Of a stretch of DNA of 64,000 nucleotides, positions 24,564 through 47,330 are shown in pieces; within the stretch, counting starts at the first letter, position 1; the number at the start of each line of letters is the position of its first letter. The position numbers and the translations under genes are program-made. Source of the stretch: Treponemataceae bacterium (GTDB lineage: Bacteria; Spirochaetota; Spirochaetia; Treponematales; Rectinemataceae); NCBI GenBank assembly GCA_963667725.2, contig CAXXHO010000003.1, positions 480,001 to 544,000 of the forward strand, given 5' to 3'. The notes under the pieces were generated by a model that was not told the origin of the DNA, did not search any database, and worked only from the letters and a program-made list of their open reading frames with translations.

Positions 24564-24647
24564 TTCAACCTGACTCGGCTATTGTCACAGTTTGTGCTTC
24601 TGGGTTATGCCCAGCACAAACTGTGACAATGTACGCCTCACAGGTTA
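24564..24647 (+). other. Truncated attC-like palindrome
   Basis: ttcaacctg...caggtta with a perfect 18-bp inner inverted repeat (24581-24598/24613-24630); R boxes missing. Confidence 0.6.
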
Positions 24648-25149
24648 GATGATGGCTCCTTCATGAATCTGAACCTCCACCTTGTCGAATTCCACGTTTG
24701 CGAGCACCTTTCTCAGTTCCTCGATATCTTCGTATTCCAGGGTCATTGCTGCACCTCCCCGCAACTTGCCACGGGCTAGTTCGTTGGTGAAAAGGTAGGC
24801 GCGGCTGCCGTAAATTAAGGTACTGACATGGTTCGTTTCAATCAATCATCCCTTGTTTCCTCCAGAAAGTATACAAGATTGATACATACTGGAGGAGAAT
24901 GTGATTAAGTTGCATCTTGTGAATATGGAAGAACTCAAAGACTATTACTCAATCAAGGTATGAGTAATAGTTCGCCGGCAGAGCCATCCGCTTCATTATG
25001 CCGAGATTCTGCCGAAATATAGTCAATTTCTTCAAGTTTTCGGTGCGTTTTTCCTCGATATTTTTCTACCATTGAAAAATGCTTCTGTACTCCAATGTTC
25101 CGAATACTCGGTACTTGAAAATATATACCTTGATAATGGAACATTCGGT

Positions 25150-25395
25150 ATGGCCAGCTCAAATTCCAAACTCATCGCGGCGTTCACCCAGTCCCCTGTT
25201 ATGCGTTCTCGGGATCTTGTGAAAGCCGGCATTCCTCGCATCGAGCTGTCGCGTGCCCTGGCCGCGGGACAGATTCGGAAGCTTGTTCGTGGGATCTATT
25301 GCCTGAAGGATTACCGACCAAGCGAGCATGGTGATCTCGCCCTCATCATAGGGAAGGCAATAGGTCATCTATGGACTGTACTAGCTTATCTTTGA
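25150..25395 (+). pseudogene. Truncated AbiEi-type (type IV TA) antitoxin
   Basis: RSRDLVKAGIPRIELSR...RKLVRGIY N-terminal wHTH; ends after about 80 aa; no AbiEii partner. Confidence 0.7.
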
Positions 25396-25569
25396 TGCCG
25401 CTGGAGTATGGACCACGATTCGATCTTTCTTCGGAACAGGCTTCTTCTTTACGGTTGTCACCGTCATCGAGATAATGGCTCCTTCATGAATCTGAACCTC
25501 TACCTTGCCGAATTCAACATTGGCGAGCGCCTTCCTCAGTTCTTCAATATCTTCGTATTCCAGGGTCAT
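25381..25569 (-). CDS. Small YezD/DUF2292-like protein
   Basis: LANVEFGKVEVQIHEGAI pattern; GAGGAG RBS; two decayed copies nearby. Confidence 0.6.
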   Translation of the reverse strand: MTLEYEDIEELRKALANVEFGKVEVQIHEGAIISMTVTTVKKKPVPKKDRIVVHTPAASKIS

Positions 25570-25596
25570 CGATGCTCCTCACATGGTGTATATCTA

Positions 25597-27072
25597 TTAA
25601 TTTGCCAGCAACGAAACCCGCTTCGCTTTACCCAGATTCTGTACGAAACTCGCTAGTTTTCGCGCATTTTCTACCCGTTCTTCTTCGGGTATGTGCTCCT
25701 CATCGAAGGATATCCCCGTGCTCCAACGCTCAGGCGTGGTCCGTGGACTCGTTGATGTTGGAGAGGCTTGCATGAGCGAGAGGATCTCCTGGATGTTCTT
25801 CGTGAAGCTTATGAACGTGAAGGACCACTGTCGTTTCTCAAGAGGCGTCTCTTTCGGCATACGCTTCTGAGCGAACCAGAGTTCCCGCCAGTTCTCGAAG
25901 TAGTAATCCACCGCGCGCTGCGCGAGTGTGTTGTTCTTCCCTAAGGCTTCATAAAGCTCCTTTGCCGCGTGGTTTGCCCGTTCATCAGGAAGGAGCGTGA
26001 TCCCCGTCACTTGATTGTACTTTCTGAACCAATAGCCGGCGATCTTGAATTGGGGGAGTTCCGAAAAGATGATGGGCTCATTTGCCGACGCCCCGCGGGA
26101 TGAAGTCTCTTGGATTGGAGTCTGATCCTCACACGCGCGCGTCTTCTCTTCTTCTGCTTCTTTATATGAGTCTATATATGCAGGCGTGACATCGTGTGAC
26201 ATGTCACAAAACGGGAGGCGTGACGTCACGCGTGACATGTCCGTGACATCGACCGTGACATCGACCGTGACAGGGGGCGTGACATCAGCCGTGACATCGG
26301 GTGTGACATCAGCCGTGACATCGGGTGTGACATCGGATGTGACATTGGCTGTGACATTAGGCGTGACATTAGGCGTGACATTAGGCGTGACATCGGCGGT
26401 TCTTTCTCCCGATGCATCATGATCCTGAGGTTGCGTTCCTGCGAGCGCCTTCCTGCGTTCCCGCTCTCGCCGCTTGCGTTCGAGTGCGGAGGAATCACCA
26501 CCATCGGATGCAAATTGCCGCTTCTCCCATCCATGGATCCGGAACTCGTCCTGCTCGTCCGTCTCAAGCAGACCGGCGCCTTTCAACTGGGTGAGCGCTG
26601 TCTCGACCGCCCCGCCATCCATCCGCAGAAAAAAAGCAAGGTCTTCATTACCAGGCAGATAGCCTTCCCTGCCTTCTTCCTTCACGATGCACAGGAGGTT
26701 GATCCACGTCTTGAACAGGTCGCCGGGGAGCCGTTGTACCTTCGGATCGTTGTACAGCTCGACATACAGGCGAAGCCATCCGTAGGAAGCGCCATTCTGC
26801 CGCTCTTCCCAGTTGTGGATACACCAGGCACCTTCAGGATCGACATCAAGAAGCTTTGCCTCGTGAAGTCTTTCAAGGGCCAGCCTGGCTGCTTCTGGCT
26901 CCTTCCTGAGGTAGTACGCGATATCCTCGAGTGGCGGAAGCCGCCCGCTCGTGTCCTTGTTCTTCGCGATGCACAAGAGGTTTATCCATGTCTTGAACTG
27001 CTCTCCCGATACTCTCTGAACCTTTGGCTTGTTCGGAATATCCGTGTAGAGTCTGAACCATGGCTGTTGCAT
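25597..27072 (-). CDS. Phage-type replication initiator with a duplicated N-terminal domain
   Basis: WFRLY...PKVQ...FKTWINLLCI occurs twice, then ERKRRERERRK and a repeat linker; ATG at 27072 after AAGGAG. Confidence 0.8.
   Translation of the reverse strand: MQQPWFRLYTDIPNKPKVQRVSGEQFKTWINLLCIAKNKDTSGRLPPLEDIAYYLRKEPEAARLALERLHEAKLLDVDPEGAWCIHNWEERQNGASYGWLRLYVELYNDPKVQRLPGDLFKTWINLLCIVKEEGREGYLPGNEDLAFFLRMDGGAVETALTQLKGAGLLETDEQDEFRIHGWEKRQFASDGGDSSALERKRRERERRKALAGTQPQDHDASGERTADVTPNVTPNVTPNVTANVTSDVTPDVTADVTPDVTADVTPPVTVDVTVDVTDMSRVTSRLPFCDMSHDVTPAYIDSYKEAEEEKTRACEDQTPIQETSSRGASANEPIIFSELPQFKIAGYWFRKYNQVTGITLLPDERANHAAKELYEALGKNNTLAQRAVDYYFENWRELWFAQKRMPKETPLEKRQWSFTFISFTKNIQEILSLMQASPTSTSPRTTPERWSTGISFDEEHIPEEERVENARKLASFVQNLGKAKRVSLLAN
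26243..26392. repeat. 13 GTGACA units at exact 12-bp period; putative iteron origin
   Basis: GTGACA at 26243, 26255, ... 26387, plus off-register copies (26186-26237) and an AT-rich patch near 26160-26180. Confidence 0.85.
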
Positions 27073-27130
27073 ACGACGCTCCTTCTCTCTTTCCGTTCCT
27101 TCCGTTACCGTCTCCGAAATTGACCCTTGC

Positions 27131-27775
27131 CTACGCCACAGCGGCGATTGCCCCGTTTGAAATCCTTCCCTTGAGCTCACCAATCAACTCGCCAAGTTTC
27201 GCCCCCAAATCCTCGACCGCTGTGTATGCCATGAGTTCGTCCTGGATCACTTCGAGTTTTCCGATGAGTTCCCGGATCCCCTGCGGCACCTGATCACCCT
27301 CTGATTCCCTCGCATCACTTACCGCCGGCACCGGATCGTCATAGGGACGCATCGTCTCGGGTTTTGCCGAAACCGTCTCACGAGGGAAGGGCTGTGGCCC
27401 TGGGAAAGGCTTCTTCGTCTCAGCTCTGCCTGCGTTTGTCTCACCTCTGACTTCGATCCGTACTTTTACAGGCGCCTCGATGACCTGGGGATTGTCCACG
27501 AAGGCCAACACTTCCTGAGGGCCGTGTTTCGTACTCTCCACTTTGACGAGGGAGAAGAGGATCTCCTTCGCCTGGGACTTCCGGTACTCGATGGCCGCGA
27601 CGGTATTGTCCCACTCGAAGCATTTGTGGAGTTCGGAGTTCTTCTTCAAGTACGCTTCCTGAACCAGATCCTTCGGCCGTACCGACGCCCCGCCGATTGT
27701 CAGGATCTCGCGCGCGATCGCCTGAGGGTCCGCCTTCTTCGCTAGGGGGGAGTCCTCTTTCCACTTGTACACCAT
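27131..27775 (-). CDS. Conserved phage-type protein downstream of the RAMP-like gene and RNA
   Basis: ELHKCFEWDNTVAAIEYRKSQA motif recalled from phage hypothetical proteins; AAGGAG RBS. Confidence 0.7.
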   Translation of the reverse strand: MVYKWKEDSPLAKKADPQAIAREILTIGGASVRPKDLVQEAYLKKNSELHKCFEWDNTVAAIEYRKSQAKEILFSLVKVESTKHGPQEVLAFVDNPQVIEAPVKVRIEVRGETNAGRAETKKPFPGPQPFPRETVSAKPETMRPYDDPVPAVSDARESEGDQVPQGIRELIGKLEVIQDELMAYTAVEDLGAKLGELIGELKGRISNGAIAAVA

Positions 27776-27787
27776 TCACTACTCCTT

Positions 27788-27927
27788 ACTGTGTTTCCAC
27801 AGTGCCGTCTGATGCCACCTTGCAGGGAGATCCCCTTCAAGGCCATTCTTTGCCGGGCATATGACACGCCCAACCGCGCCTCGCCATGACTAGCAAAACC
27901 TCGCCGGACCAAACCTTTACCTATCTG
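27788..27927 (-). ncRNA. Putative guide RNA: GGY-NN pentamer tract plus 3' hairpins
   Basis: Minus strand reads GGTAA-A-GGTTT GGTCC GGCGA GGTTT TGCTA GTCAT GGCGA GGCGC GGTTG GGCGT GTCAT, then CCTTG...CAAGG and ACTGTG-GAAA-CACAGT hairpins. Boundaries approximate. Confidence 0.72.
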
Positions 27928-28548
27928 CTACTTTGAAGATTCTTCTGTTTTGTTGGCCGACTCGATGGCCACATGGAAACAGCCGAACTGACCATCGCAC
28001 TCCGGTCTCCATTCCCCCACACCGACACCGAATCCCGCCAGGTTGAACAGGTTTACGAGCTGTTCGAGGCTGATCTTGTCCGCGTTGAACCGTACCCGCA
28101 CTGACGTCGTCCATGTCCTGAACTCAGGTCGATAGCGTATGTCGGCGACGCCCATGCCGACGCGGACCGTGTCCTCCCTCATCGAAGGCTCGCCCTCGAT
28201 GGCGACGAGATCGCTTCCGTTCTCTCCATCGATGAAGAAGGATCCCCGGAGCTCCGTCATCTTCATGCCTTCGGCGAACCGTCCGCCGGCGGATACCGCG
28301 GCAGCCTTGAACCCGATAGCGGGGAAGCCATAACGCCCGTCCGGAAGACGGTAGAACGATGCCTGGTATTCCTCTTCCGGATCCTTGGCAACTCGTGCGT
28401 TTTTGGCTTTCTTCATCTGCTTGTCGAGCATGGCTTTCTTAACCTTCTCGCTCCATGCATGGACGATGAGGGGTGTATCCCCGATGATGCGGATCTCGGT
28501 GTATTTGACGTTGATCGGTTTGATTTCGATGACTTCAAGATTTGCCAT
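27928..28548 (-). CDS. Solo Cas7/RAMP-like protein
   Basis: IRIIGDTPLIVH (RAMP beta1-like), FPAIGFKAA (Csm3/Cas7 PxxxxKGa-like) and a C-terminal G-rich loop AGFGVGVGEWRP..GQFGCFHV. Confidence 0.75.
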   Translation of the reverse strand: MANLEVIEIKPINVKYTEIRIIGDTPLIVHAWSEKVKKAMLDKQMKKAKNARVAKDPEEEYQASFYRLPDGRYGFPAIGFKAAAVSAGGRFAEGMKMTELRGSFFIDGENGSDLVAIEGEPSMREDTVRVGMGVADIRYRPEFRTWTTSVRVRFNADKISLEQLVNLFNLAGFGVGVGEWRPECDGQFGCFHVAIESANKTEESSK

Positions 28549-28966
28549 GTACGTACTCCTTTGACTTTTCTGTCTTCTCTTTAATCCAGGAAACGGGGAT
28601 CGCCCCGCGGTATAGGTACCAATGGGAACCGTCGGAATGCCCCGCGAGATTGAACAGCATGAGATCCATGGGGCTCATGTGGAAGATCATGCGGGCAGCC
28701 GTATTCCATGGAACCACGCTTGAACCTTCTTGGATCTCGATCGTGAAGCGAACCTCCGTGCGGTCACCGCACTTTCCCGTCAGGTTCGTCGCCCAGTGTT
28801 GAGCGGTGAACCTGGGATCATCGGTGAGCCAGAGATAGCCGCGGAATACCCTGGATCCGTCTTTGTAGGGGAGGTACACGCCGCCCACGGCTATTCCTTC
28901 CCGTACTATCCCTTTTGCGCATTCGCGGTTCGTAAAATGGTACAGCTTCACTCTTTCTGCCTCCAT
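28535..28966 (-). CDS. Small ADP-ribosyltransferase-fold-like phage protein
   Basis: KLYHFT...IVREGI...LWLTDD...WYLYRGAIP pattern; fold assignment is inferred. Confidence 0.5.
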   Translation of the reverse strand: MEAERVKLYHFTNRECAKGIVREGIAVGGVYLPYKDGSRVFRGYLWLTDDPRFTAQHWATNLTGKCGDRTEVRFTIEIQEGSSVVPWNTAARMIFHMSPMDLMLFNLAGHSDGSHWYLYRGAIPVSWIKEKTEKSKEYVHGKS

Positions 28967-29039
28967 CAGGCACCCCTCTCATGATGGTGTCATGATCCGT
29001 CATGACAGCGTCATGATTCACTTCAGTTTCATCTCTTCC

Positions 29040-29294
29040 TCAAAACGGGATATCATCATCGCCAGCTGCGTCAGGAGCTGTGGGTACGGAATTCTCACGA
29101 GGGAACCATGCTTCGATGAAATAGAGCGGGAATTTGCCGCCTTCGACATACTTTTCATTCTTCACGAGCCGGCAGAAAAGCTTCTCCCCTGCAGGCAGAT
29201 TGATACCGATATCGCTCTCGATTTCTCCGGAGACCGAAACGATCTTTACTCCATTCTCTTCTTTCACCTTCTTCCACAGCGATCCTATCCTCAC
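29040..29294 (-). CDS. DUF736-like/SSB-like small protein
   Basis: RIGSLWKK...SGEI; acidic DDDIPF SSB-type tail; AAGGAGG RBS. Confidence 0.7.
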   Translation of the reverse strand: MRIGSLWKKVKEENGVKIVSVSGEIESDIGINLPAGEKLFCRLVKNEKYVEGGKFPLYFIEAWFPRENSVPTAPDAAGDDDIPF

Positions 29295-29318
29295 CTCAAA
29301 CCTCCTTTACTAACGTCA

Positions 29319-29386
29319 AAGATTGTAAAAACCCTCCCTAGGGCGTACTCTTGAAGTACGACCAACAATTTCTTCCCGAAGGAGGG
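29319..29386 (-). repeat. Structured attenuator-like repeat, copy 1
   Basis: 29341-29386 matches 36251-36296 at 43 of 46 nt. Confidence 0.8.
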
Positions 29387-29508
29387 ACAAACGCGCACTT
29401 TTGGAATTGAAGAATGGGAAGTTTTTGCTGTTCTAAACTGCCCTATCTGCGGTGAACCAATCGGATTGAGTCGTGAACAAATCACGAGCATGCTTGAATC
29501 GAGGAAGT

Positions 29509-29922
29509 TCACGTTCTCTTGCTCCCGGGGGCTTGTCTCTGAATTTCATCCCCTTGCGTTGAAGAAGGCTCTCGAGAAAGGCGATCGGGATCAAATGCAG
29601 AAACGGGAATCAAGATCGGGAAGATGATCCCCTCAGGAGCACCGTAGAAATTGTTGTAGATGGAGGCGCCCATCTCCTCCAGGAGTGCAGCGAGCTTGGC
29701 TTCAAAGGCGATTCTTCCGCCCCACCGGGTGTAGCGCATCATGTTTTCCCAACATTCCGGCTGTATTGCCGAAACGCCCCGCACAGTGTCTTCCTTTCCG
29801 ATCTCCAGGAGTTCCGAATAGAAGACTTTGAACGCTTCGAGCATCATTTCTTCATAGGATTGATTAGGCATTCTTTTCCTCTTGTTTCCTGTGGGGGTGC
29901 ATCCTGGGGGCGAAAAATTCAA
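29509..29922 (-). CDS. Hypothetical protein
   Basis: Co-oriented ORF overlapping its neighbours; start uncertain. Confidence 0.5.
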   Translation of the reverse strand: MNFSPPGCTPTGNKRKRMPNQSYEEMMLEAFKVFYSELLEIGKEDTVRGVSAIQPECWENMMRYTRWGGRIAFEAKLAALLEEMGASIYNNFYGAPEGIIFPILIPVSAFDPDRLSREPSSTQGDEIQRQAPGSKRT

Positions 29923-30194
29923 TCATGGACGGGGTTCTCCTTGCTCTTTGAATCAGCGACACCGCTCGCTTGATCAACCAAAAGGGTTGTACCGTCATCC
30001 GGAAGTCTGATCTCGATGTTGAGTGTGTTGAATGCATTTGAACCGCGGATGATGACCTCGGCATCGAGACCGGCGTCCTTGAGCATCCCTGCGATCTCAT
30101 CGAAGATGGCGCGGACTGCTTTCTGTCGAATGGCTTTCGCCTTTGTATAGGCGACAACCGATTCCCGCATTGAATCACTCGCTTTCAAATACAA
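29919..30194 (-). CDS. Hypothetical protein
   Basis: AAGGAGG RBS before TTG; sits within the operon. Confidence 0.6.
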   Translation of the reverse strand: MYLKASDSMRESVVAYTKAKAIRQKAVRAIFDEIAGMLKDAGLDAEVIIRGSNAFNTLNIEIRLPDDGTTLLVDQASGVADSKSKENPVHD

Positions 30195-30201
30195 CCTCCT
30201 T

Positions 30202-30537
30202 TCATGCTTCTTGCGGTAGTTTCACCGCACTCAAGTCAAAACGATCCTTCAGCCAAGAAACCGCATTGGCGATCGCCTCCTCGCGGGAATGGGCCGCATA
30301 CGCAGGTCCATGTGCCCTGAAGGGCTGGAAATCACCGCCGCATCCTTTCACGGGGATGGCATAGCGCATGCCCCATATCCATAGACCATTCTCGAGCTTC
30401 CGAAGCTTGACCTTTCCATACTGGAAGGGGACTTCCTCGACCGGGATCCGCGCATCGAGCGCATAGGGATCCTCGGCGTGGAGCGCCTCCTTGGGGATCT
30501 GCTTCGTCATGTCAAGCTCGAGTTGCCCTTTGCTCAT
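30202..30537 (-). CDS. Hypothetical protein
   Basis: ATGA-coupled to the upstream gene. Confidence 0.65.
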   Translation of the reverse strand: MSKGQLELDMTKQIPKEALHAEDPYALDARIPVEEVPFQYGKVKLRKLENGLWIWGMRYAIPVKGCGGDFQPFRAHGPAYAAHSREEAIANAVSWLKDRFDLSAVKLPQEA

Positions 30538-31472
30538 AGCGCCTTGTCCTTCGGAAGTCCGGCAGTGAGCGCCTCGCCGGGATCCTCAGCACACGGGGCG
30601 GTATCCGTCCCTGCAGGTGCAGCATCGTTCGCCTGTCTGGGTTCCGGATCTTCCAATGCCTCGATTTCGCGCGAGAGTTCGTCGATCCTGCGTTCCACCC
30701 GTTCTTTCTTCTTGTATTCCCCGGAGAGTTCCTTCTTGGCGCGCTCAAGACGCTCTTCGTCCGTTTCCGCTTCCCCCGGATCGAAGCGGGGATCGATTAC
30801 TTTCTTCTGTCGGCAAACCGCCTTGATCTGTTGGATCGAGCATCCCTGGTTCGCCATAGCGGCCGCGTGGCTCATGTCCTCGCCCTGGCTCACGATCGCT
30901 TCCACGAGGGAAGGCGAGCCCGCGGTCTCGACATTGCTCAACGCGACGTTGTGCTGCGCTTTGACGAGGTTCTGGGCGTGGTTCCTTGGGATCCGCGCAT
31001 GACGATCGAGGAAGTCCTCCAAGCGGGCGCCCTTTTCCTGGGAGAGGGTCTCCATCTCGGCGATTGCTTGCCCTAGCTTTCTATTGAGTTCGTTCTGCTG
31101 CCGCTGAAGTTCGAGGATCTCTTCACGTTTCGCCTTCAGCGCTTCGTCCTCGAGGTAGGGATCCACATAGACACCGGCTTCGATCGCCAGCTTCAGAAGG
31201 GAGTGGAAGAGCGCCCAGAAGGCGATCGAGTGCGCGTTCCTTCCTGAGACGAGATTGCGGGTATGTGCAAGGTGGTGCGTAAACTCGTGGAGGGCGGTAT
31301 ATATGAGAGCGTTGTCGTTCGTGAAATTCTTGTTGTGAAGGACGATCGAGGCGAGGGCAGGCTTGTAGAGGCCGTTCACCCGGCAGGAGGCTTTTCCTGA
31401 GAACACGAGGGTGAAGTCCGGACAGGGAACCTTCAAAGAAAGAAGCTTCTCCTTCACCTGATCCTGGTTCAT
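30534..31472 (-). CDS. HExxH (SprT-like) metallopeptidase-domain protein
   Basis: VNGLY...ALHEFTHH...AHSIAFW, followed by coiled coil. Confidence 0.75.
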   Translation of the reverse strand: MNQDQVKEKLLSLKVPCPDFTLVFSGKASCRVNGLYKPALASIVLHNKNFTNDNALIYTALHEFTHHLAHTRNLVSGRNAHSIAFWALFHSLLKLAIEAGVYVDPYLEDEALKAKREEILELQRQQNELNRKLGQAIAEMETLSQEKGARLEDFLDRHARIPRNHAQNLVKAQHNVALSNVETAGSPSLVEAIVSQGEDMSHAAAMANQGCSIQQIKAVCRQKKVIDPRFDPGEAETDEERLERAKKELSGEYKKKERVERRIDELSREIEALEDPEPRQANDAAPAGTDTAPCAEDPGEALTAGLPKDKAL

Positions 31473-33025
31473 ACGGTTGCCTCCGCAATCGTCGTATCGC
31501 GGGCACTTTCATCGTTAGGAATCTCGTCTTCAGTGGCATCGTCAGCATCATCGTTTTCGCCGGGGGCGCCCCGCGGGTCGATATCGTCTGCGGTCAGGCC
31601 GTAGGCTCCGGCGATCTCCTCGAGGAGCGGGGCGGTCTCGATTCCCGCGGCTGTGGCTCCTTCAACGAGAGAGCGATCGACGCCTGCGCTGTACTGGTTC
31701 ACTTTCGTATGGATCCCGAAGGCGAAGACGAGAAGAAGCCGCTCGAGGCTTCCCCGGTAGAGCGTCTCCAGGTGGTTTTTCAGGAAGGTGTTGTTATAGT
31801 CCGGATCCTCCCATCCTTGGAGCTTCGTGATCCGGCTCTGGCCGTCGAAGCCAAGGCTCTTCCATATCTGAAGGAGCGAACGCCTGAGGAGAGGCAGGGA
31901 AATCCCTTCCTCTTCATGGAAGGAGCCCATGATCCCTTCGTAGAGCCCCAGGGCGTATTCATTCCTCGCCTTCTCGATCTTCTTCTCCCGGGCTCGCGCT
32001 TCCTTCTTCTCCCCCGGGGGTTTTACGTAGTCTTTCTTCTTCCCCCAGGTGAGGCGCCCGGGCTTGTTTCCTCCGACGACGAGGACTCGAACCGCACCTT
32101 CATCCTTCTTCCTGCACTCAGTCCACTCGTGAGGCTCAAGGGCATCCGCCCGGTGCTCTCCCGAATAGCCGTCCATAACCTCAAGGTGTTCGATCCCTTC
32201 AAGCTCCGCCTGCTTCCCTCCGATGAACGCCTTCTCCTTCGCCTCGAAGCAGGTCTTGTCGGCGCAGCAGTCCTTCTTGCCGAGTTCCGCGAAGAGCTGT
32301 GGTTCGGCGCCGGTCCGTTTTGAGCAGGAAGAGCATGGCCCCGCGGCAGGCAGGAGATCGGCATCATGAAGCTTCCAGGCTGCCTGGGAGAGTTCCATGA
32401 GGATCTCGTGCCTGATCTGTTCATCGAAGGCCTTGATCGAAATCGGCCAGGGGCGGTCGAGGATCTTAAGCGCCGCCTTCTGCTGCTCAGAAGGGAGCCG
32501 GGCGATGAGGTTTGCATGCCCCGCCGAGAGCTTTCCTCCGGCGAGAAGATTCCTGGCCGCGGGAACGAGCTTCCGAAGCCTCAGGCGCTGATAGACATAG
32601 ACGACGGAGCGGCCGAGCTCCTTCGCGATGGACTCGATCTCGTAGTGCCCTTCCTCGATGAGCCTATGGAAGCCTTCGGCCTCATCGAGCGGATGGATGT
32701 CTTCCCGCTGCAGATTTTCGATGAGCTGGATATGAAGTGCGGCTGCGTCATCGAGATCGCGGACGATACAGGGGAGGGTGGAAACCCCGGCGAGTGAAGA
32801 GGCCCTCCACCGGCGCTCCCCGGCGATGAGTTCGAAGTTCTCGCCCGCGGGGCGTACAATGGCCGGCTGCTGGACGCCGATCGAGCGGATGCTGTCGGCG
32901 AGCTGCTCGAGTTTCTCCTTGTCGAACCCGCCGACACTTCGGTTCTTTGGAGAGGGTACAATCTTCTCGAGCGGGATATGATGGATTCGATCGTTCATGG
33001 GATCACTCGATTCTTCCGTTTTCAT
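31469..33025 (-). CDS. ParB/RepB/Spo0J-family protein
   Basis: LADSIRSIGVQQP, IAGERRWRAS, IENLQREDI and an HTH. Confidence 0.92.
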   Translation of the reverse strand: MKTEESSDPMNDRIHHIPLEKIVPSPKNRSVGGFDKEKLEQLADSIRSIGVQQPAIVRPAGENFELIAGERRWRASSLAGVSTLPCIVRDLDDAAALHIQLIENLQREDIHPLDEAEGFHRLIEEGHYEIESIAKELGRSVVYVYQRLRLRKLVPAARNLLAGGKLSAGHANLIARLPSEQQKAALKILDRPWPISIKAFDEQIRHEILMELSQAAWKLHDADLLPAAGPCSSCSKRTGAEPQLFAELGKKDCCADKTCFEAKEKAFIGGKQAELEGIEHLEVMDGYSGEHRADALEPHEWTECRKKDEGAVRVLVVGGNKPGRLTWGKKKDYVKPPGEKKEARAREKKIEKARNEYALGLYEGIMGSFHEEEGISLPLLRRSLLQIWKSLGFDGQSRITKLQGWEDPDYNNTFLKNHLETLYRGSLERLLLVFAFGIHTKVNQYSAGVDRSLVEGATAAGIETAPLLEEIAGAYGLTADDIDPRGAPGENDDADDATEDEIPNDESARDTTIAEATV

Positions 33026-33375
33026 CGTGCTTTCAACTCCCTTGTCTCGAAATGTCCCGAAAGACAGGGCTCGTTTTTCATCATCAGGCGGACGTACCGT
33101 GACGCGAAGCTGTTGTCCAGCTTGAAGATCGCCGTTGTGTGATCGGTCGAAATATCGCTGTCGCGCAATTCCTCGAAGAGTGCCGCAATGCCCCGCGGGC
33201 GCTTGCGGGCAGCATCGTCCAAGGCAAGACTGACCAGGTTCCGATAGATGTGCGGATTTTCTCGGTGAAAGACAGCAAACCGCTCATCGATTGTCGCCCG
33301 GCGACCGGGAATGTCTGCAAAGAGTTCAGGTTGCCCATCAGCTTCCAGCTCCACTTCCGGGATAACGCCTTTCAT
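33022..33375 (-). CDS. Conserved phage hypothetical protein
   Basis: FHRENPHIY...FKLDNSFASRYVR...FETREL; start at MKGV. Confidence 0.65.
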   Translation of the reverse strand: MKGVIPEVELEADGQPELFADIPGRRATIDERFAVFHRENPHIYRNLVSLALDDAARKRPRGIAALFEELRDSDISTDHTTAIFKLDNSFASRYVRLMMKNEPCLSGHFETRELKAR

Positions 33376-33536
33376 CTCATCCCCCCTCCGCGGCGATCCT
33401 TCCTTTCGGTCACGCGCGTGTTCAGAAGCAGATTCTCTATACTCCACGATCTTCATCCATCGCTTTCCAACTCGGATATGTCCTTCCTGCGAGCTGAAGA
33501 ACGCATGGAGCTTCTGTTTCAGACGGTGCCACATGT

Positions 33537-33764
33537 TCACCCCCATCTCGCGGGGCGATCCCCCGGTTCGAAAAGAAGAGGCGGGATCAGGGCCGCTTCT
33601 CGCTTTTTCCCGGGCGCGGCGAGTTCGACGCAATGTCCCTTGTAGGGACGCCCCGCCTCGAGGCAGCTCCGCGCTTCCTTCATCGCTTCGGGCGTGTACG
33701 CTCCAAGTTCGTTGTAGATGGCCGTGAGGCCCGTGAACTTCCGCCCGTCGATCCATACCGTCAT
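33537..33764 (-). CDS. Hypothetical protein
   Basis: ATGA-coupled to the RusA-like gene. Confidence 0.5.
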   Translation of the reverse strand: MTVWIDGRKFTGLTAIYNELGAYTPEAMKEARSCLEAGRPYKGHCVELAAPGKKREAALIPPLLFEPGDRPARWG

Positions 33765-34306
33765 GGCCGGGCTCCGGAAAAGGAACCTCGCCCCCCGGAG
33801 CGGGGTAAGGAGGTTATGAACCCCCGCTCCGAGGTTTGAGGCAAAGTGACGATTTCTACATGCACTCCCGGTTTTTCTTCCTGAAGCGCATACCGCTCGA
33901 AGCTTTGGCACCTGATGACTTGGGCAGTGTCCTGCCATGCCCTGGCTTGGGTGAGGGCCTTGATCATGGCTTCCTCGAGGACTCCGTCTGCAGGCTTCGA
34001 GTCCTGCCAGAATCTGACCGCATCCTTCTTCGGTCTCTCGAAAATAAACTGCAGGTTCAGTTCGACACGCCCCGCCAGCGGTACCTGCTTGAGGGCAGTG
34101 AAAGCGGAGACTACCAGGCTCTTCCAGGAGTCGGCGTGGTTGTCATGGCAGACGTTGAAGCGGCTTGCCCTTGTTTGCGGCATTGCGATAGGCGCCCCGC
34201 AGACGAAGAAGGATGCGACGGGCTTTCCCTCGAGGGATGCCATCGGAGCGACGTAGACGCCGTCCTTCAGGGTGAAGAAGCCCGCTTCGGCCGGGGAGAC
34301 GCTCAT
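33761..34306 (-). CDS. RusA-like Holliday junction resolvase (divergent)
   Basis: GAPIAMPQTR, FIFERPK, KPADGVLEEAMIKAL and WQDTAQV; acidic catalytic positions look degenerate. Confidence 0.7.
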   Translation of the reverse strand: MSVSPAEAGFFTLKDGVYVAPMASLEGKPVASFFVCGAPIAMPQTRASRFNVCHDNHADSWKSLVVSAFTALKQVPLAGRVELNLQFIFERPKKDAVRFWQDSKPADGVLEEAMIKALTQARAWQDTAQVIRCQSFERYALQEEKPGVHVEIVTLPQTSERGFITSLPRSGGRGSFSGARP

Positions 34307-37733: not shown

Positions 37734-38417
37734 ATGGAATTTTATGAAAGAGTAAAGACTCTTGCAAAGCAAAATAGAATTACTATCGAAGGGGCTGCTG
37801 AGGCTGCCGGCATATCTAGAGCCCAGTACTACGGCTATAAGAAGCATGGGAATTTACCAAGAGCTGATGAAGCAGCGAACCTCGCAAAGGAATTAAATAC
37901 TTCAGTTGAGTATCTTGTTTTTGGAAAAGAAAGTACAAGAAAAGATATGCCTAGCGGTTTGGTCATAAGAGATGATAAAGGAAGAGAAATTGAAATCGAT
38001 AGTGAGCTATGTCTTCTGCCAATCCTTTCCCAGAAAGTAGCGGCTGGCATGGGCCAGGCCATGATCGACGATGTTGAGATCGTTGGTCAGCTTCCATTCC
38101 TAAACCGAATGCTTCGAGGCGAACAGCCGGCAGGCGCCAAGGCCCTCGAAGTCCGCGGAGACTCGATGACCGGCGTTAATATCTTCGATGGGGATATGGT
38201 TGTATTCATACCTGGAATAATTCGTGGCGATGGGATCTACGTGCTTGCCGTGGGCGATGAGCTGATTGTGAAACGTGTCGAGTTCGATGCAGTATCAAGG
38301 AAGATCCATATCATGTCCGAGAACCCTCGCTATAAAGATCGAGTAGAGTCCGCCGATGGCCAGACTCTCAGGGTTGTAGGGAAGGTGTTTGGTTGGGTAC
38401 ATGCGCATCCATATTGA
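37734..38417 (+). CDS. CI/LexA-like repressor (XRE HTH plus S24 peptidase)
   Basis: N-terminal HTH, AAG cleavage site, VRGDSM serine and VKR lysine. Confidence 0.93.
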   Translation: MEFYERVKTLAKQNRITIEGAAEAAGISRAQYYGYKKHGNLPRADEAANLAKELNTSVEYLVFGKESTRKDMPSGLVIRDDKGREIEIDSELCLLPILSQKVAAGMGQAMIDDVEIVGQLPFLNRMLRGEQPAGAKALEVRGDSMTGVNIFDGDMVVFIPGIIRGDGIYVLAVGDELIVKRVEFDAVSRKIHIMSENPRYKDRVESADGQTLRVVGKVFGWVHAHPY

Positions 38418-39832: not shown

Positions 39833-40687
39833 ATGACTAATGAACTTCTTGAATTACTTAGAATTGAAAGTAATGATCTAGATAAAGAATTTAGCAAAGC
39901 ATCAATAAAGGGTAAAGGAACACCACAAGAAATAGCCGACTTTAGAGAAGGTTACTTTAATAGCATTATAAGGAAGTACTTTCCATTTCCTTATAGAGTT
40001 ACTAAAGGCGGGATTATCGATACATTCGGAAATAAATCTGCATCAATTGATTGTGTTTTATGTAATCCTGCTCATCCATATACAATAGATAATTCAGGAA
40101 AATATTCTGTTTTACTTGCTGATGGTATTGATGCTGCTATAGAGATTAAGCCTGATATTAAGTCAAAGCACGAATTGATTAGAGGCTTAAGCCAAATAAA
40201 AAGTGTAAAAATATTACGTAGATCAAAATCACCAATTGTTGTTACAAGTAGGGTTACTGAAGAAATTATTGAGTACTCAAAGACTATCCCTTCATTTATT
40301 TATTCAATTGAAGCAAAGAAAAATATTGAAAATACATTAAATGAAGTTATTGAATATTATGTTCAAAATGATATTCCATTAGAAGAACAGGTTGACTATA
40401 TCGTAATTCATAATATTGGAATATTTGTTAATTATAAATATCAAGAGTTAAATAAAGGATACGTACCTGAAGGAATTCCAAGATATGGATACTTTTTTGA
40501 AACTTGGAACGAGCTTACTTTTGCTGCTTTCTTATTATATCTGAACCTTAGCTTTACAGCAGTTCCAGTTATAACGAGTAGTGTATTAGAACGTTATCTA
40601 TATTCTATCAAACCTATTAAAACTGGAAGGTTTAATTGTGAAGTATTTTGGGAAAAGGGGCATCTAACAAATGCTTCAACCCTATAA
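39833..40687 (+). CDS. DUF6602/NucC-like restriction-fold nuclease (cassette 2)
   Basis: ADFRE...KYFP...KGGIID...SASIDCVL...AIEIK motifs. Confidence 0.72.
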   Translation: MTNELLELLRIESNDLDKEFSKASIKGKGTPQEIADFREGYFNSIIRKYFPFPYRVTKGGIIDTFGNKSASIDCVLCNPAHPYTIDNSGKYSVLLADGIDAAIEIKPDIKSKHELIRGLSQIKSVKILRRSKSPIVVTSRVTEEIIEYSKTIPSFIYSIEAKKNIENTLNEVIEYYVQNDIPLEEQVDYIVIHNIGIFVNYKYQELNKGYVPEGIPRYGYFFETWNELTFAAFLLYLNLSFTAVPVITSSVLERYLYSIKPIKTGRFNCEVFWEKGHLTNASTL

Positions 40688-42340: not shown

Positions 42341-44265
42341 GCTGACGTTGTACAGCGTGTGGTATAATACAGTAAGCAATAAAGCAGCTTAATATATTAT
42401 ACTGACAACAAATAACTAAAAACGGACTGTACAAAAAGCATGATGCAAATGCGGTATAAGATATTTATAAATATTCGAAATAAAACTTTACAGATAAAAC
42501 ACTATGTTGTATAATTAGCGGTATAATGAACGTACGGAAATGTACCCTAAAGAATGCTCAAGGCGGTACCTATACGTACCTTCAACTTGTGCACAACTAC
42601 CGCGTCAAGGAAACAGGAAAGACCAAAACCAATGTCCTTATGAAGCTCGGACGGGAAGATCAGATCGAGCCTTCCTACATCCAGGCGATCATCAAGGCAC
42701 TGTCTGCGGTCTTAGGCGAATATCCTTCTGAAGTCCCCGCCGGATTTGACTTCCATTCAAGTCGGGAGCTTGGGGGCACCTGGCTTCTAGATGCCCTATG
42801 GAATCGTCTTGGCATGGCAAAGGCTATCAAAGGGCTTCTTAAGGAACGACAGTTCGCCACACCCGTCGAACGGCTCTGCTTTGCCATGGTTTCAGGAAGA
42901 ATACTCGCTCCGGGTTCGAAGCTTTCTCTTGAACACTGGGTTTCAAAGAAAGCATATATCAGGGATCTTGTGAACGTCGATGTTCACAATCTTTACCGGG
43001 CGATGGATCTTCTTGTGGAGTCGAGCGAAGAACTCCAGAAGCACATATTTACCGAAGTATCAAAGAATGCCCACCTTGATGTGGATCTTATCTTTCTTGA
43101 TACGACGAACACCTATTTCGAGACCGACGAAGATGCTTCCGGTTCAGGGCTTTTAAAACGTGGCCACAGTAAAGATGGACACCCCGAGCTACCGTTGGTT
43201 TCGATTGCCTTTGCGGTGACGCGTAGCGGCATTCCTATTCGCTGCTGGGTATTCCCGGGCAACACGAGCGACCAGACGATCGTCGAGCAGGTGAAAGGTG
43301 ATCTAGGACAGTGGAATCTTGGTCATGTCGTCATGGTCCAAGATGCAGGATTCAATAGTGCCGACAACAGAAGAATCCTTTTACGGGAATGCGGTGACTA
43401 TATCATCGGCGAAAAGCTCCGCGTTGGTACCGATGGCGCCGCGGTAGAAGCCCTACACCGGAAAGGGCGATTCAGGATCCTGGAAAGTGGCCTCGCGATT
43501 AAAGATGTCGTCCTCGATGCAGGGAAAGCCACGGAGCGCCGATTCATCATCGTCAAGAATCCGGAAGCCGAAACGCGCGACCATGTCATACGCGAACAAA
43601 TCGTCGATGCTACGAAGCGCAAGCTTGATGAACTGTCGCAGTATACGGGGAAAGCACACACGAAAGCGGCGTGTGCGCTACGCTCTCATTCCGCCTATGG
43701 CAGATACATTAGGCAGGATACGAAGGGTGTCTTGCACCTCGACACCGCCAAGATAGCCTCAGAGGAACTCCTTGATGGCAAGTTTCTAGTGTCGACGTCC
43801 AGCATGAAGCTGGATGCTGCCGATATTGTTGCCGGCTATAAGCAGCTCTGGGCCATAGAGCGGGTATTCAAGGATATGAAAAACACCTTGGATATTCGTC
43901 CCATATACCACCGACTTGATGATCGTATTCGAAGCCATATTCTTATTTGCTGGCTTGCCATGGTGCTGGTACGGTATGCAGAGAATATGGCGGACCGGTC
44001 GTGGTACCAGATTGAAAAAGTTCTGTCCGATGTTACTGCAGGGCTTATTGAGAGCGACAATGTAAGCCTCTGGTATTGCTCTGATATTTCCGACGAGGCG
44101 AAGGACATTTTCAAGCGCTTAACTATTGAATTACCAAAGAAAGTTCTTGCTACAGTAGCAAGAGATCCTGTTGCGGTATAAAAGATTTTCGACTGCAATC
44201 GTATAACTCTATTATTTATAGAGTATTAGCAAGATTTTCTATACCGCGCACTGTACAACGCCAGC
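42341..44265 (+). mobile_element. IS1634-family insertion sequence
   Basis: Terminal inverted repeats match at 21 of 25 nt (GCTGACGTTGTACAG.../...CTGTACAACGCCAGC); TCA on both flanks. Confidence 0.88.
42526..44181 (+). CDS. IS1634-family DDE transposase
   Basis: YLQLVHNYR, FLDTTNTYFE, GHSKD, FPGNTSD, QDAG and YKQLWAIERVFKDMK motifs. Confidence 0.93.
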   Translation: MNVRKCTLKNAQGGTYTYLQLVHNYRVKETGKTKTNVLMKLGREDQIEPSYIQAIIKALSAVLGEYPSEVPAGFDFHSSRELGGTWLLDALWNRLGMAKAIKGLLKERQFATPVERLCFAMVSGRILAPGSKLSLEHWVSKKAYIRDLVNVDVHNLYRAMDLLVESSEELQKHIFTEVSKNAHLDVDLIFLDTTNTYFETDEDASGSGLLKRGHSKDGHPELPLVSIAFAVTRSGIPIRCWVFPGNTSDQTIVEQVKGDLGQWNLGHVVMVQDAGFNSADNRRILLRECGDYIIGEKLRVGTDGAAVEALHRKGRFRILESGLAIKDVVLDAGKATERRFIIVKNPEAETRDHVIREQIVDATKRKLDELSQYTGKAHTKAACALRSHSAYGRYIRQDTKGVLHLDTAKIASEELLDGKFLVSTSSMKLDAADIVAGYKQLWAIERVFKDMKNTLDIRPIYHRLDDRIRSHILICWLAMVLVRYAENMADRSWYQIEKVLSDVTAGLIESDNVSLWYCSDISDEAKDIFKRLTIELPKKVLATVARDPVAV

Positions 44266-44355: not shown

Positions 44356-45555
44356 ATGTCAGGACGATCAGCAACTGAAACAATTCGTGGTTTTTATTAC
44401 CAATTTGATTATTCAATTCTGAAAATACTCCGTTCTGACAATGATACAGTCAGCTTTGATATCGAAAAGATTGAAGACCTTGATATCAACACAGTTGATG
44501 AAACAACGGCGGTGCAATGCAAGTACTATTCTGGGACTGGATATAATCATTCAGTGATTGCTGAACCAATTCGAAAAATGATTAAGCATTATTCTCAGCA
44601 TCTAGACCAATCGATAAGATATAAACTTTATGGTCATTTTGCTTCAGGTCAGGATAAGCTCACATTGCCAATTGATATCAATTTTCTTAAAAGTTATTTT
44701 TTGACTTACAATCACAAAAATGTTAAGCATGAGTTTCAGATTGACGAATCTATCGATGATGAAATATTAGCAAGCTTTTTAGATGTATTGGATATTGATA
44801 TAAACGCTGCTACATATGAATCACAATTTTCAGAAATACAAAAGTTATTATGCAATTTGCTTTCTTGTACAGAATTTGAAGCCGATTCTTTATACTACAA
44901 TAGCGCGCTTCGTATAATTAAGGAATTATCTGTTCAAAGGGATGATTCAAAGAGAAGAATAACTAAAGCAAAAATGGTAGAGAGCATTTCCTGTAAGGAT
45001 ACCCTATTTGGGATCTGGTACATGAACTTGAAGGGGAATGAAAAATATTGTAGAATAATTAGGAAGAAATATTTTACTCAGCTTAATACATCTCCGTTTG
45101 AGAGATTTTTTATTATTGAAACTTCTCCGAGCACATCGATTCAGAATTTGAAAAGCATTACATATATGCTAGCTAATAAATGGTCAAAAATATCACGAAG
45201 AACAGTAGACACTTATTGCGCCTTTGTTTTATTTCCCCAATTAGGTGCATCAAATCTTAAGGAACTAAAAGTACAGCTCTATAAAGAAGGACTTCCAATC
45301 ATTGATGGATATCCTTTCCATGGATCTAATTTATGTACAGATTTTCTTTCGATCGAACCTAGATATGATAATAGAATTAAACTAAAATTCATAAATTCAT
45401 TAGGTGACTTTGCAGAATATCTTGATTATTCTACTCATCGTAAGGAAGTGTATCAATTTTTTACCTCGCAATCAGTTGATTTAGGTACGACAAACTTCGA
45501 TTTGCATATTTCAATTTGCTTGAAGAACGTCATGGACATATTGGAGGTATTATAA
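44356..45555 (+). CDS. DUF4297 nuclease of a DUF4297-HerA anti-phage system
   Basis: RSATETIRGFYYQF, IEDLDI and VQCKYY (PD-(D/E)xK variant); TAATG-coupled to HerA. Confidence 0.85.
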   Translation: MSGRSATETIRGFYYQFDYSILKILRSDNDTVSFDIEKIEDLDINTVDETTAVQCKYYSGTGYNHSVIAEPIRKMIKHYSQHLDQSIRYKLYGHFASGQDKLTLPIDINFLKSYFLTYNHKNVKHEFQIDESIDDEILASFLDVLDIDINAATYESQFSEIQKLLCNLLSCTEFEADSLYYNSALRIIKELSVQRDDSKRRITKAKMVESISCKDTLFGIWYMNLKGNEKYCRIIRKKYFTQLNTSPFERFFIIETSPSTSIQNLKSITYMLANKWSKISRRTVDTYCAFVLFPQLGASNLKELKVQLYKEGLPIIDGYPFHGSNLCTDFLSIEPRYDNRIKLKFINSLGDFAEYLDYSTHRKEVYQFFTSQSVDLGTTNFDLHISICLKNVMDILEVL

Positions 45556-47330
45556 TGCCCGAAATAAATGCTGAAGTAGTTGGTGTTTTCCCAAGCAAAG
45601 TACGTATTTCTGTTGATAATATTAGTGATTTTAAGGTTGTTGAAGAAGAGCTTAAAATCGGATCGTACTTAAGGATCATTGGAGACAATGAAAATGTCAT
45701 TCTAATCGCAATGATCAATAGCTTCTCTATAGAGGCTACAATTGAAGGTGGCCGTAAGCATTTTATAGAAGCTTCTCCTTTAGGGATAATTACAGATGGC
45801 ATTTTTATTCGAGGAGGAGATTCTATCGCCATTCCTCCAAAGAAAGTTGAACCCGCAAAGAAAACAGAAATACAAGAGATATTTGGAAATTCCGTACCTG
45901 ACGCTAAAAAGTACATTTTTTCCACGCTAAATGCAAATCGATCAATTTCTGTTCCAGTTGATGGTGATAAATTCTTCAATAAACATATTGCCATCGTCGG
46001 ATCAACTGGTTCCGGGAAATCGCATACTGTAGCAAAACTCATTCAGAAAGCTCGCGATGCAAAAAATTCTGGATATTCTGGATTGAATAATTCTCATATT
46101 GTGATCTTTGATATTCATTCAGAATACAAATCAGCATTCCCTGAGGCTAATGTATTATCAATAGATAACTTGATTATTCCTTATTGGCTATTGAACAGTG
46201 ACGAGCTTGAGCAAATATTGCTTGATACTGGCGAGAGAGATAACTATAACCAAGCTTCAGTATTTCGAAGCTTGGTGACCGAAAATAAAAGACTAAAAAA
46301 TCCAACAGTAGATAAGGTTTTCTATGATAGTCCCCTTTTCTTCGATATTCAAGAAGTTCTCAATGCACTAACAAACATAAAAAATGAAACTGTAAATGCA
46401 AAAAATACAGACAGATATATGATTGTTGATCCTTCATATAAACTTGAAGCTGAAGGCAAAACAAATGTAGATTCAGGTATATTGTTAACTAACGATGAGA
46501 AAATGAGCAAATACTTTGAGAAGGTACTTTCATTCCACCCTAGAAAATCGCAGAGCATAACTTCAGGTGACTATTCTGATGGAACCTTGGATAAATTTGT
46601 TTCTAGGTTCCAAGCAAAAGTTTCCCAGGATAGACTCGAGTTTCTTTTTGGAGAGCATGCTAAATCAATATCCTTTTTAGATACTGTTAAGCAATTCATT
46701 GGATATGAAGAGAAAAAAGAAAAAAACGCTATAATTATAGACCTTAGTGGCGTGCCTTTTGAAGTCTTAAGTATTACCGTATCCTTAATTTCTCGTGTGA
46801 TATTTGAATATGGTTACCACTACAAGCGTTTTAGAACCAGAAAAGATCCATCTGAAAAAATCAATAATGACACACCAATTCTAGTAGTCTATGAGGAAGC
46901 TCATAAATATGCGCCAAGAAGTGATCTTGCGAAATACCGACCATCTTTGCTTGCTATTGAGCGGATAGCAAAAGAAGGTAGAAAATATGGCATTTCTCTA
47001 TTATTGGCTAGTCAACGGCCCTCAGAAATATCAGAAACAATCTTCTCGCAATGCAATAACTTTATAGCGATGCGTCTTACAAATCCTGATGACCAAAGTT
47101 TTGTAAAGAAACTCCTACCTGATACAATGGAAAGCCTGATTGATCAATTACCTGTATTAAGAGCTGGCGAGGCATTGCTAATAGGAGAAGCGGTTGTTAT
47201 ACCATCAATTGTAAAGATAGAAACATGTGATATCCCTCCTTCCTCAAATGACATCCCATATTGGCAATTATGGAAAGGTAGTTGGAAAGAATCTATACTC
47301 GAAACCATCGAGAAGGAATGGATGAAATAA
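45555..47330 (+). CDS. herA: HerA/FtsK-family ATPase
   Basis: KHIAIVGSTGSGKS, FDIHSEY, EEAHKY, IAKEGRKYG and SQRPSE motifs. Confidence 0.92.
   Translation: MPEINAEVVGVFPSKVRISVDNISDFKVVEEELKIGSYLRIIGDNENVILIAMINSFSIEATIEGGRKHFIEASPLGIITDGIFIRGGDSIAIPPKKVEPAKKTEIQEIFGNSVPDAKKYIFSTLNANRSISVPVDGDKFFNKHIAIVGSTGSGKSHTVAKLIQKARDAKNSGYSGLNNSHIVIFDIHSEYKSAFPEANVLSIDNLIIPYWLLNSDELEQILLDTGERDNYNQASVFRSLVTENKRLKNPTVDKVFYDSPLFFDIQEVLNALTNIKNETVNAKNTDRYMIVDPSYKLEAEGKTNVDSGILLTNDEKMSKYFEKVLSFHPRKSQSITSGDYSDGTLDKFVSRFQAKVSQDRLEFLFGEHAKSISFLDTVKQFIGYEEKKEKNAIIIDLSGVPFEVLSITVSLISRVIFEYGYHYKRFRTRKDPSEKINNDTPILVVYEEAHKYAPRSDLAKYRPSLLAIERIAKEGRKYGISLLLASQRPSEISETIFSQCNNFIAMRLTNPDDQSFVKKLLPDTMESLIDQLPVLRAGEALLIGEAVVIPSIVKIETCDIPPSSNDIPYWQLWKGSWKESILETIEKEWMK

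Follow-up and report, generated by a model that had tools for sequence, protein, structure and literature searches.

A probable single-guide VIPR locus on a prophage-like element of a Treponemataceae bacterium, and the predicted target of its guide in a sister element

The DNA considered here, referred to below as the window, is a stretch of 64,000 nucleotides (C3:480001-544000) from the 4.22-Mb assembly of a Treponemataceae bacterium, a genome that is 97%-complete. On its minus strand the window carries a group of small genes arranged around an ORF of 206 aa, the vipr gene, which is followed by a short tract of pentamers and by a gene that accompanies vipr in many related loci. The features to which the text refers are the following:

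27928..28548, minus strand: vipr, coding for the 206-aa Vipr protein, an ancestral RAMP that is Cas7/Csm3-like (ATG start, PHROG match, fold, PDB match)
27866..27915, minus strand: predicted guide region of the vrRNA, 10 pentamer units (sequence, statistics, target match, natural variant)
27788..27865, minus strand: candidate 3′ part of the vrRNA, made up of a degenerate 11th unit, GTCAT, followed by two predicted hairpins (RNA fold)
27131..27775, minus strand: candidate accessory gene, vap-like, 214 aa, phrog_15946 (tblastn linkage to vipr)
28535..28966, minus strand: ORF of 143 aa with a 14-nt overlap onto the start of vipr (shared only with the sister element)
29040..29294, minus strand: the 'self' allele, the copy of the predicted target gene found in the window, 84 aa, ending in DDDIPF
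29132..29104, minus strand: self site, homologous to the predicted target site and scoring 15/20

The spacer between vipr and the next gene measures 152 nt and ends at the ribosome-binding site of that gene, whose ATG lies at 27775. A search of positions 27000..29500 against Rfam gave no match at E ≤ 1. Scanning 27000..31600 revealed no sigma-70-like promoter, terminator-like sites occurred at chance level, and no intrinsic terminator was found flanking the tract. The absence of a promoter or terminator at these places counts against reading the locus as a VIPR system, and it is also why we infer that the spacer would be co-transcribed with the operon. A 56-aa ORF that runs across the tract (27742..27912, minus strand) was ruled out as a gene, since conservation follows a period of 5 nt instead of 3. 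The 143-aa ORF has no match in Pfam or PHROG; tblastn recovered it in 2 of 179 loci, both in the same genome (L081, the window, and L082, the sister element described below), and in 0/80 viral loci.

The 206-aa ORF encodes a RAMP of the Vipr family with a Cas7/Csm3-like fold. The original prediction, made from the letters of the sequence, had attributed to it RAMP motifs and a C-terminal glycine-rich loop, which is found as GFGVGVGEWRP at residues 172-182. A Pfam search with the protein gave no match, and the PHROGs collection returned phrog_4652 (function unknown) at E 1.5e-38. Structure prediction followed by Foldseek, which had been proposed as a check, recovered the RAMP fold: the AlphaFold2 model, built on 75 sequences (pLDDT 90.7, pTM 0.83), gave 74 matches in the PDB at E ≤ 1e-3, the best being 9g9b_E at E 1.5e-6. 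The top chains belong to type III-A Csm complexes (9g9b_E, 8do6_E, 6xn3_F, 5yjd_B titled Csm3), to type VII Cas7 and to Cmr6. At the level of sequence, the sole PDB match is 36pp_D, 'SUSP1 Vipr protein', reached by the single sequence at E 1.6e-7 over residues 128-200 only and by the family profile at E 1.9e-13 over profile positions 63-197 (~135 positions). Five residues of SUSP1 Vipr, H17, R138, D177, W178 and R179, are described as holding the GGY of the guide RNA in the accessible text of the corresponding preprint (10.64898/2026.04.26.720927). HMMER alignments place R138, D177, W178 and R179 opposite R140, E179, W180 and R181 of the window protein, three of which are identical to SUSP1 (R140, W180, R181) while E179 stands in place of D177; H17 pairs with H30 by a weak N-terminal alignment. 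R140 does not vary among 75 homologues, and R181 and H30 show at least 90% conservation. The family is very large, with 7528 proteins at E ≤ 1e-3 among 7626 candidates of a 90%-clustered collection, and the Vipr clade counts 4022 representatives of 50%-identity clusters.

VIPR systems are the subject of three bioRxiv preprints dated April to October 2026 (10.64898/2026.04.26.720920, 10.64898/2026.04.26.720927 and 10.64898/2026.10.15.759431), and what is said of them here follows the accessible parts of these sources. VIPR was first described in 2026 as a CRISPR-related RNA-guided DNA silencer of phages (10.64898/2026.04.26.720920). Vipr is presented in the three preprints as a minimal RAMP that binds vrRNAs of 9-16 GGY-NN units, one protomer per unit. 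Double-stranded DNA is recognized through the NN dinucleotides, with one base skipped between them, and this leads to transcriptional silencing of targets found in rival phages, in satellites and in other VIPR systems. Seven types and six vap genes are distinguished in the same preprints, which also mention staggered arrays and systems with a single guide. A Vipr protein is characterized by an RRM core, a G-loop and a thumb, and a vrRNA gene by tandem GGY-NN (YNNGG) pentamers, at least 4 and typically 9-16 of them, located beside vipr (10.64898/2026.04.26.720920).

In the window, such a tract starts 12 nt after the vipr stop, on the same strand, and keeps a 5-nt register from 27915 onwards (27915..27861). 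Its units are GGTTT, GGTCC, GGCGA, GGTTT, TGCTA, GTCAT, GGCGA, GGCGC, GGTTG, GGCGT and GTCAT. The original prediction had described this 5-nt periodicity, with eight of 11 units starting in GGY, as well as an extra GGTAA just upstream, and both are present, the latter at 27921-27917 and one base out of register. On the two strands of the 64-kb window a score of 8/11 is reached nowhere else, the next best being two places with 6/11; when the window was randomised 100 times with a first-order Markov model, the best place had 4 GGY units in 68 cases, 5 in 31 and 6 in one. Because the 11th, non-GGY unit does not match the target discussed below, we take the guide to consist of 10 units, with the NN string TT CC GA TT TA AT GA GC TG GT. 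Units 5 (TGCTA) and 6 (GTCAT) carry a degenerate GGY that lacks GG. In SUSP1, GGY substitutions abolished silencing, as stated for the constructs listed in the legend of fig. S12 (10.64898/2026.04.26.720920), and by analogy these two units would count against function. RNA folding of the 152-nt spacer gave -55.9 kcal/mol (z = -3.0), a stability attained by 0/200 shuffles, and it includes the two hairpins that had been anticipated 3′ of the tract, at about 27843..27817 and 27803..27788. These hairpins are not conserved in the sister locus, where only AGGGGATC is common to both, and the 3′ hairpin stretch is for this reason treated here as a candidate tail. With its 10-11 units, 8 of them GGY, beside vipr and on the same strand, the tract fits the published description, and in its GGY-NN architecture, its strand and its position this predicted vrRNA agrees with published vrRNAs.

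Relatives of the locus provide a broader view of this association. Eighty viral loci whose Vipr proteins are 48-66% identical to that of the window were fetched and combined with 17 genome and 80 metagenome loci to a set of 177, of which 150 were kept after removing duplicate vipr DNA; a tract was scored where at least 7/9 units were GGY. Same-strand tracts occur in 66 of the 80 viral loci (opposite-strand in 1/80) and in 121 of the 150 distinct loci from all sources (opposite-strand in 1/150), and in 89/94 of those with at least 1200 nt of downstream DNA. As foreseen for homologues, the GGY appears conserved and the NN hypervariable among these relatives (entropies of 1.88 and 1.98 bits at unit positions 4 and 5), the search criterion itself fixing the GGY columns in part. 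In 51 loci the first tract follows the conserved downstream gene; in 18 it is placed between vipr and that gene, which is the arrangement of the window, in 17 it is upstream of vipr, and in 35 it is downstream of vipr with the gene undetected. Many relatives have long arrays, and in these a 4-nt step, 'GGCaGGC', links one run of ~9-11 units to the next. Judged by their sequence, these arrays match the published 'staggered arrays', which are named in the legend of fig. S18 (10.64898/2026.04.26.720920). Compared with them, the window tract is single, shorter and more degenerate, and the absence of the 'GGCaGGC' junction from it is a further point against the VIPR reading. Note also that vipr was not found in the 100 related genomes searched.

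The gene that follows the spacer encodes a protein of 214 aa with the N-terminus MVYKWK and an FEWD...YR..QA motif. A tblastn match to it lies on the vipr strand in 55/80 viral loci, 53 of which have it starting within ~510 nt downstream of vipr, and matches are found in 117/179 loci overall. All of the aligned members (61/61) match phrog_15946, a family annotated as function unknown. The structural model of the protein reached a pLDDT of 79, with most of the N-terminal 90 residues above 90. Foldseek gave no match to this model at E ≤ 1e-3, the weak rows (E > 1) including several winged-helix proteins; in a VIA wide search the C-terminal helical hairpin was the only part aligned (Z ≤ 6.7), and a search of the ESM Atlas returned unnamed viral clusters only. 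We regard the phrog_15946 neighbour as the natural vap candidate of this Vipr clade, and do not equate it with any of vap1-6.

The same chromosome carries a second vipr, 88% identical to the first, at C3:1632341-1632928. Collinearity between the two elements extends over ~10.5 kb (window 25403-35955), with 78-93% identity, and the stretches between them that blastn could not align include the tract region (27787-27971) and 28950-30222. The sister tract consists of the units GGTTA, GGTGC, GGCTA, GGCCG, GGAAG, GGCAT, GGCTT, TGTAA, GGCAA, GGCAT, GGCAG and GGACG; in comparison with the window tract the GGY frame is kept and the NN are different. A metagenome locus related to the sister element (L100) has a tract identical to the sister tract except for one Y position. 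Neighbouring genes are of a phage type in both cases. Those of the window element encode a CI-like S24 repressor (37734..38417), an excisionase-like HTH protein, RusA, ParB and a replisome organiser, and those of the sister element an HTH protein, ParB and a replication initiator. In the sister element, the small gene that carries the predicted target site is followed, on one strand and with short gaps, by a winged-helix-like ORF, a 138-aa ORF, vipr, the tract, the vap-like gene and the replication initiator; the first of these ORFs is called winged-helix-like from its sequence, no family match having been obtained. Capsid, tail and integrase genes are absent near either element, so we consider the two to be defective prophages or satellite-like.

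The original prediction had also stated that the window contains no other cas genes and no CRISPR array, and the searches bear this out. Those ORFs of the window that were scanned against Pfam and PHROG gave no cas family, Tandem Repeats Finder reported no CRISPR-like array in the window (4 short unrelated rows), and the whole genome has no match to Pfam Cas1 or Pfam RAMPs.

Candidate targets were sought on both strands of the 4.22-Mb genome by the published procedure, in which each GGY is replaced by one wildcard. The 10-unit guide of the window has one site scoring 18/20, at C3:1631539-1631567, and the next best score, 15/20, is shared by 27 sites. A score of 18 was reached by 0/200 guides with shuffled unit order, by 2/200 base permutations and in 0/10 Markov surrogate genomes. 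With a skip of 0 or 2 the maximum was 16, and with a skip of 3 it was likewise 16 apart from a single 20/20 match that we take to be the tract's own DNA. The 18/20 site lies in an 82-aa ORF of the sister element, ~800 bp upstream of the sister vipr. Read in frame it is TAT CCG GAT TTT TAT GTT GAA GCC TGG GTG, that is YPDFYVEAWV, and every skipped base falls on a wobble position. Natural VIPR targets are described as codon-phased, with the skipped base at the wobble position, and a match of at least 80% of the NN bases is the published acceptance level (10.64898/2026.04.26.720920); at a 1-nt skip, 18/20 corresponds to 90%. Since 2/200 base-permuted guides also reach 18/20, the case for this target depends on where the site lies, on its codon phase and on the pattern of alleles, and part of the match reflects shared ancestry, because target and self allele are homologous.

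This pattern of alleles can be followed through the family of the target gene, which comprises 24 sequences with lengths of about 71-88 aa. The majority, among them the copy of the window, end in DDDIPF, the sequence of the C-terminal tip of bacterial SSB; the sister copy and the closest relative, P0337, end in DDDYPF. The segment that corresponds to the target site has the consensus [FY]PDFYIEAWV, and because the residues of this motif fix the first two bases of their codons, the score of the guide can be read from the proteins. The P0337 allele (FPDFYIEAWV) implies 20/20 and the P0346 allele (YPDFYIEAWV) 19/20, both from protein sequence, and the sister element and four others, also of the 'PDFY' class, score 18/20. 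By comparison, the 13 members with 'PL[YF]' score 13-16/20, among them the window's own allele, FPLYFIEAWF, at 15, and the remaining four, with further variants at the site, score 14-18. Of 200 related genomes, one contains the target-gene family, and its copy scores 14/20. The exact 1-nt-skip pattern of the guide had 0 matches in IMG/VR, a search that disallows mismatches and thus says little. From these data the predicted natural target of the window guide is the small gene of 'PDFY'-class sister elements, one of which resides in the same chromosome. When the sister guide was scanned in the same manner against its own genome in 9-12-unit versions, the maxima (16/20 to 18/24) stayed within the range of shuffles; one chance-level 16/20 match falls in the window at 45788..45760.

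A natural variant of the guide comes from contigs of three metagenome runs of one study, in which the element is ~97% identical to that of the window (72 differences in 2193 nt). On the RNA strand, unit 5 has a T>G change that turns TGCTA into GGCTA and restores GG, unit 2 has T>C at its Y position, unit 1 has T>A at its last base, converting the NN from TT to TA, and a fourth change affects the upstream GGTAA that is out of register. Two of the runs show the changes in units 1 and 2; the contigs of the third do not cover these positions. Every GGY is kept. The variant guide scores 19/20 at one genome site, taken from the score count to be the same sister site, and it equals the NN string implied by the P0346 allele. 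Such a pattern is the one expected of a working guide, in which the scaffold would be fixed and the specificity letters would follow the target.

It is probable, in our view, that the locus is a single-guide VIPR system on a prophage-like element and that its guide is aimed at the small gene of the sister element. As far as its sequence allows one to judge, it is a genuine VIPR system, a new member of a class already published. The proposal of a candidate non-CRISPR RNA-guided system therefore stands as regards a VIPR-type locus, and does not stand as regards a new class, since VIPR systems have already been published. The name 'VIPR', which had been put forward with that proposal, was the right one, as seen from the homology to SUSP1 Vipr, the tracts of the relatives, the phage-type setting and the codon-phased target with its 1-nt skip. 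Following the published mechanism, one Vipr protomer would bind each pentamer and sequester its GGY, the 10 exposed NN dinucleotides would read double-stranded DNA with one base skipped between them, and the resulting filament would block transcription. The segment read would be the codon-phased [FY]PDFYIEAWV stretch in the small gene, with its SSB-like acidic tip, of 'PDFY'-class sister elements. Since the sister site lies upstream of the winged-helix-like ORF, vipr, the vrRNA, the vap-like gene and the replication initiator, the window element would shut the early and replication operon of its rival when both are derepressed, and its own allele would escape silencing. That the two sister VIPR elements stand in a relation of one-way silencing, with guide alleles (TT/TA in unit 1) tracking target alleles (F/Y), is a more tentative proposal, to which we give somewhat less than an even chance. 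If it is true, the locus would represent an ongoing arms race in which nearly identical satellites or defective prophages oppose each other by means of a minimal single-guide VIPR that lacks a tail.

An alternative that we find unlikely is that of a decaying locus, in which the protein gene is intact while the guide degenerates within a defective prophage and silencing has been lost. Both elements may indeed be relics, in view of the structural and integrase genes missing nearby, and the two units without GG, the lack of a staggered-array junction and of a conserved tail, and the presence of one guide only where relatives carry arrays would all be in keeping with decay. However, the ORFs of the operon around vipr are all open, and the metagenomic variant keeps or restores GGY while its one NN change fits another real allele of the target. 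In addition, single-vrRNA systems and 'frequently observed internal degeneracy' are reported in the accessible text of the first preprint (10.64898/2026.04.26.720920).

Less likely still, and very improbable in our estimation, is an autoregulatory guide that would pair partially with the element's own allele (15/20) and thereby act on its own early operon instead of on a rival. The self site at 29132..29104 is among the 27 best sub-threshold sites of the genome and lies upstream of vipr in the same operon, as such a function would have it, but its match of 75% falls short of the minimum of 80% at which targets were accepted in the published work, three of its adjacent units match 0, 1 and 1 of 2 bases, and alleles of rival elements match at 18-20/20; moreover, the accessible text of the preprint reports no self-targeting at 80% or above (10.64898/2026.04.26.720920). 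That the tract is a feature of the DNA, such as iterons near replication genes (the replisome-organiser gene lies 0.7 kb downstream) or a G-rich spacer arisen by chance, and not an RNA guide, is hardly credible given the strand bias among relatives (121/150 against 1/150), the linkage to a RAMP homologous to the solved 'SUSP1 Vipr protein', the chance controls, which exclude coincidence, and the codon-phased match in a rival gene.

Set beside the published VIPR systems, the single-guide VIPR locus proposed here shares with them a lone small RAMP and, as read from its sequence, an adjoining same-strand gene for a GGY-NN pentamer RNA. It also shares the phage or prophage setting, the absence of cas genes, a conserved accessory neighbour, and a codon-phased 1-nt-skip target in a rival mobile element, upstream of that rival's own VIPR. 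It differs in its single 10-unit guide with two degenerate units and no recognisable conserved tail, in its accessory, a phrog_15946 protein whose fold has no significant match and which is not equated with vap1-6, and in a predicted target that lies in the same chromosome, in a sister element. Targeting of other VIPR systems and of sister satellites by vrRNAs is described in the accessible text of the first preprint (10.64898/2026.04.26.720920). The type II VIPR of the Escherichia phage SUSP1 (PDB 36pp) has a homologous protein in which the GVG[DE]WRP motif of the G-loop and the thumb arginine are conserved, although the window Vipr is only distantly similar to it in sequence. SUSP1 is described as having four vrRNAs, each about 100 nt long and bearing a pseudoknot tail (10.64898/2026.04.26.720920); unlike these tailed vrRNAs, the relatives of the window Vipr have staggered arrays without tails. 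Finally, Cas7/Csm3 of type III and type VII effectors has the same fold as the window Vipr and provides its best structural matches, and Vipr and Cas7/Csm3 are both described as covering the RNA in fixed steps, one for each subunit, and as flipping bases by means of a thumb (10.64898/2026.04.26.720927). In VIPR, whose target is double-stranded DNA, the RNA is held with a period of 5 nt and three bases of each unit are sequestered, whereas crRNA complexes of class 1 have a 6-nt period (10.64898/2026.04.26.720920). CRISPR-Cas type III, with its repeat-spacer array and its partner genes for Cas10, Cas5, Cas6 and Cas1/2, is further set apart from the locus by the lack of an array in the window and of a Cas1 or Pfam RAMPs match in the genome.

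The locus is of value as a natural example of small size, in which a single guide has a single, clearly predicted target. The co-resident sister target and the own allele, which differs in three adjacent units, form a pair suited to tests of self/non-self discrimination and of mismatch tolerance, and in the natural variant a change of the guide follows an allele of the target. The Vipr clade, very large as it is, travels with the phrog_15946 neighbour. Homologues of the window Vipr occur in 37 phage records, which include cultivated Mycobacterium and Gordonia phages, and these phages would offer tractable experimental hosts.

A second VIPR locus lies on the same contig, about 1.12 Mb from that of the window, in a sister element (extracted as locus L082) that is collinear with the window's prophage-like element:

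G000:C3:1632341-1632928 (L082 1501-2103): second vipr, its Vipr 88% identical to the window's Vipr
About L082 2121-2180: second GGY-NN tract, 12 units

The NN dinucleotides of this tract differ from those of the window tract, and no outstanding target of the sister-element guide was found in this genome. The predicted target of the window's own guide falls in the sister-element copy of a small gene present in both elements:

Window 29040..29294 (-): window copy of the small target-family protein, C-terminus DDDIPF
L082 549..797 (+): sister-element copy, C-terminus DDDYPF

Proteins of this family are about 71-88 aa long. Where the guide reads the gene, their alleles are mainly of two classes, PDFY and PL[YF]. 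The window copy has no match in Pfam or PHROG and shares with the majority of the family the DDDIPF terminus, which is similar to the C-terminal tip of bacterial SSB.

Homologues of vipr were also found in the records of Mycobacterium phages (29) and Gordonia phages (6), and among the matches listed all of them (30/30) are annotated as 'hypothetical'. The arrangement in Mycobacterium phage Donkeykong (NC_051648.1; locus L186) is as follows:

L186 about 1991-2350: gp48/GGY-NN array
L186 2345-3091: gp49, vipr homologue, with the array immediately upstream
L186 3106-3561: gp50, with the vap-like family motif FEW(N/D)D...YQAR

Here gp48, an annotated CDS ('hypothetical protein'), coincides with a long GGY-NN array on the same strand. 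The word 'Mycobacterium' is absent from the main text of the VIPR discovery preprint (bioRxiv 10.64898/2026.04.26.720920).

Several further genes were identified in the window:

24645..24845: near-duplicate look-alike of the DUF2292-like ORF
25072..25395: AbiEi-antitoxin-like short ORF, between the two near-duplicate small ORFs (24645-25569)
25381..25569: DUF2292-like small ORF
39833..40687: DUF6602 protein
45516..47330: HerA/FtsK-like ATPase (DUF87)

Window positions 25403-26162 are 93% identical to the end of the sister element. Since the ATPase and the DUF6602 protein adjoin the window's element, a defence island may lie next to it. An approximately 150-nt repeat occurs at 39646-39809, 40660-40809 and 47325-47480; it exists in dozens of copies of 70-90% identity, most densely between about 400 and 545 kb of contig C5. 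The window also contains an insertion sequence (42259-44311; DDE_Tnp_1 transposase ORF 42526..44181), with at least 9 more copies elsewhere in the genome at 93-99.6% identity. Finally, the replisome-organiser gene, 25597..27183 (-), includes 14 copies of a 12-nt tandem repeat (26231-26397), coding for a run of (D/N)VT(P/A/S) tetrapeptides.
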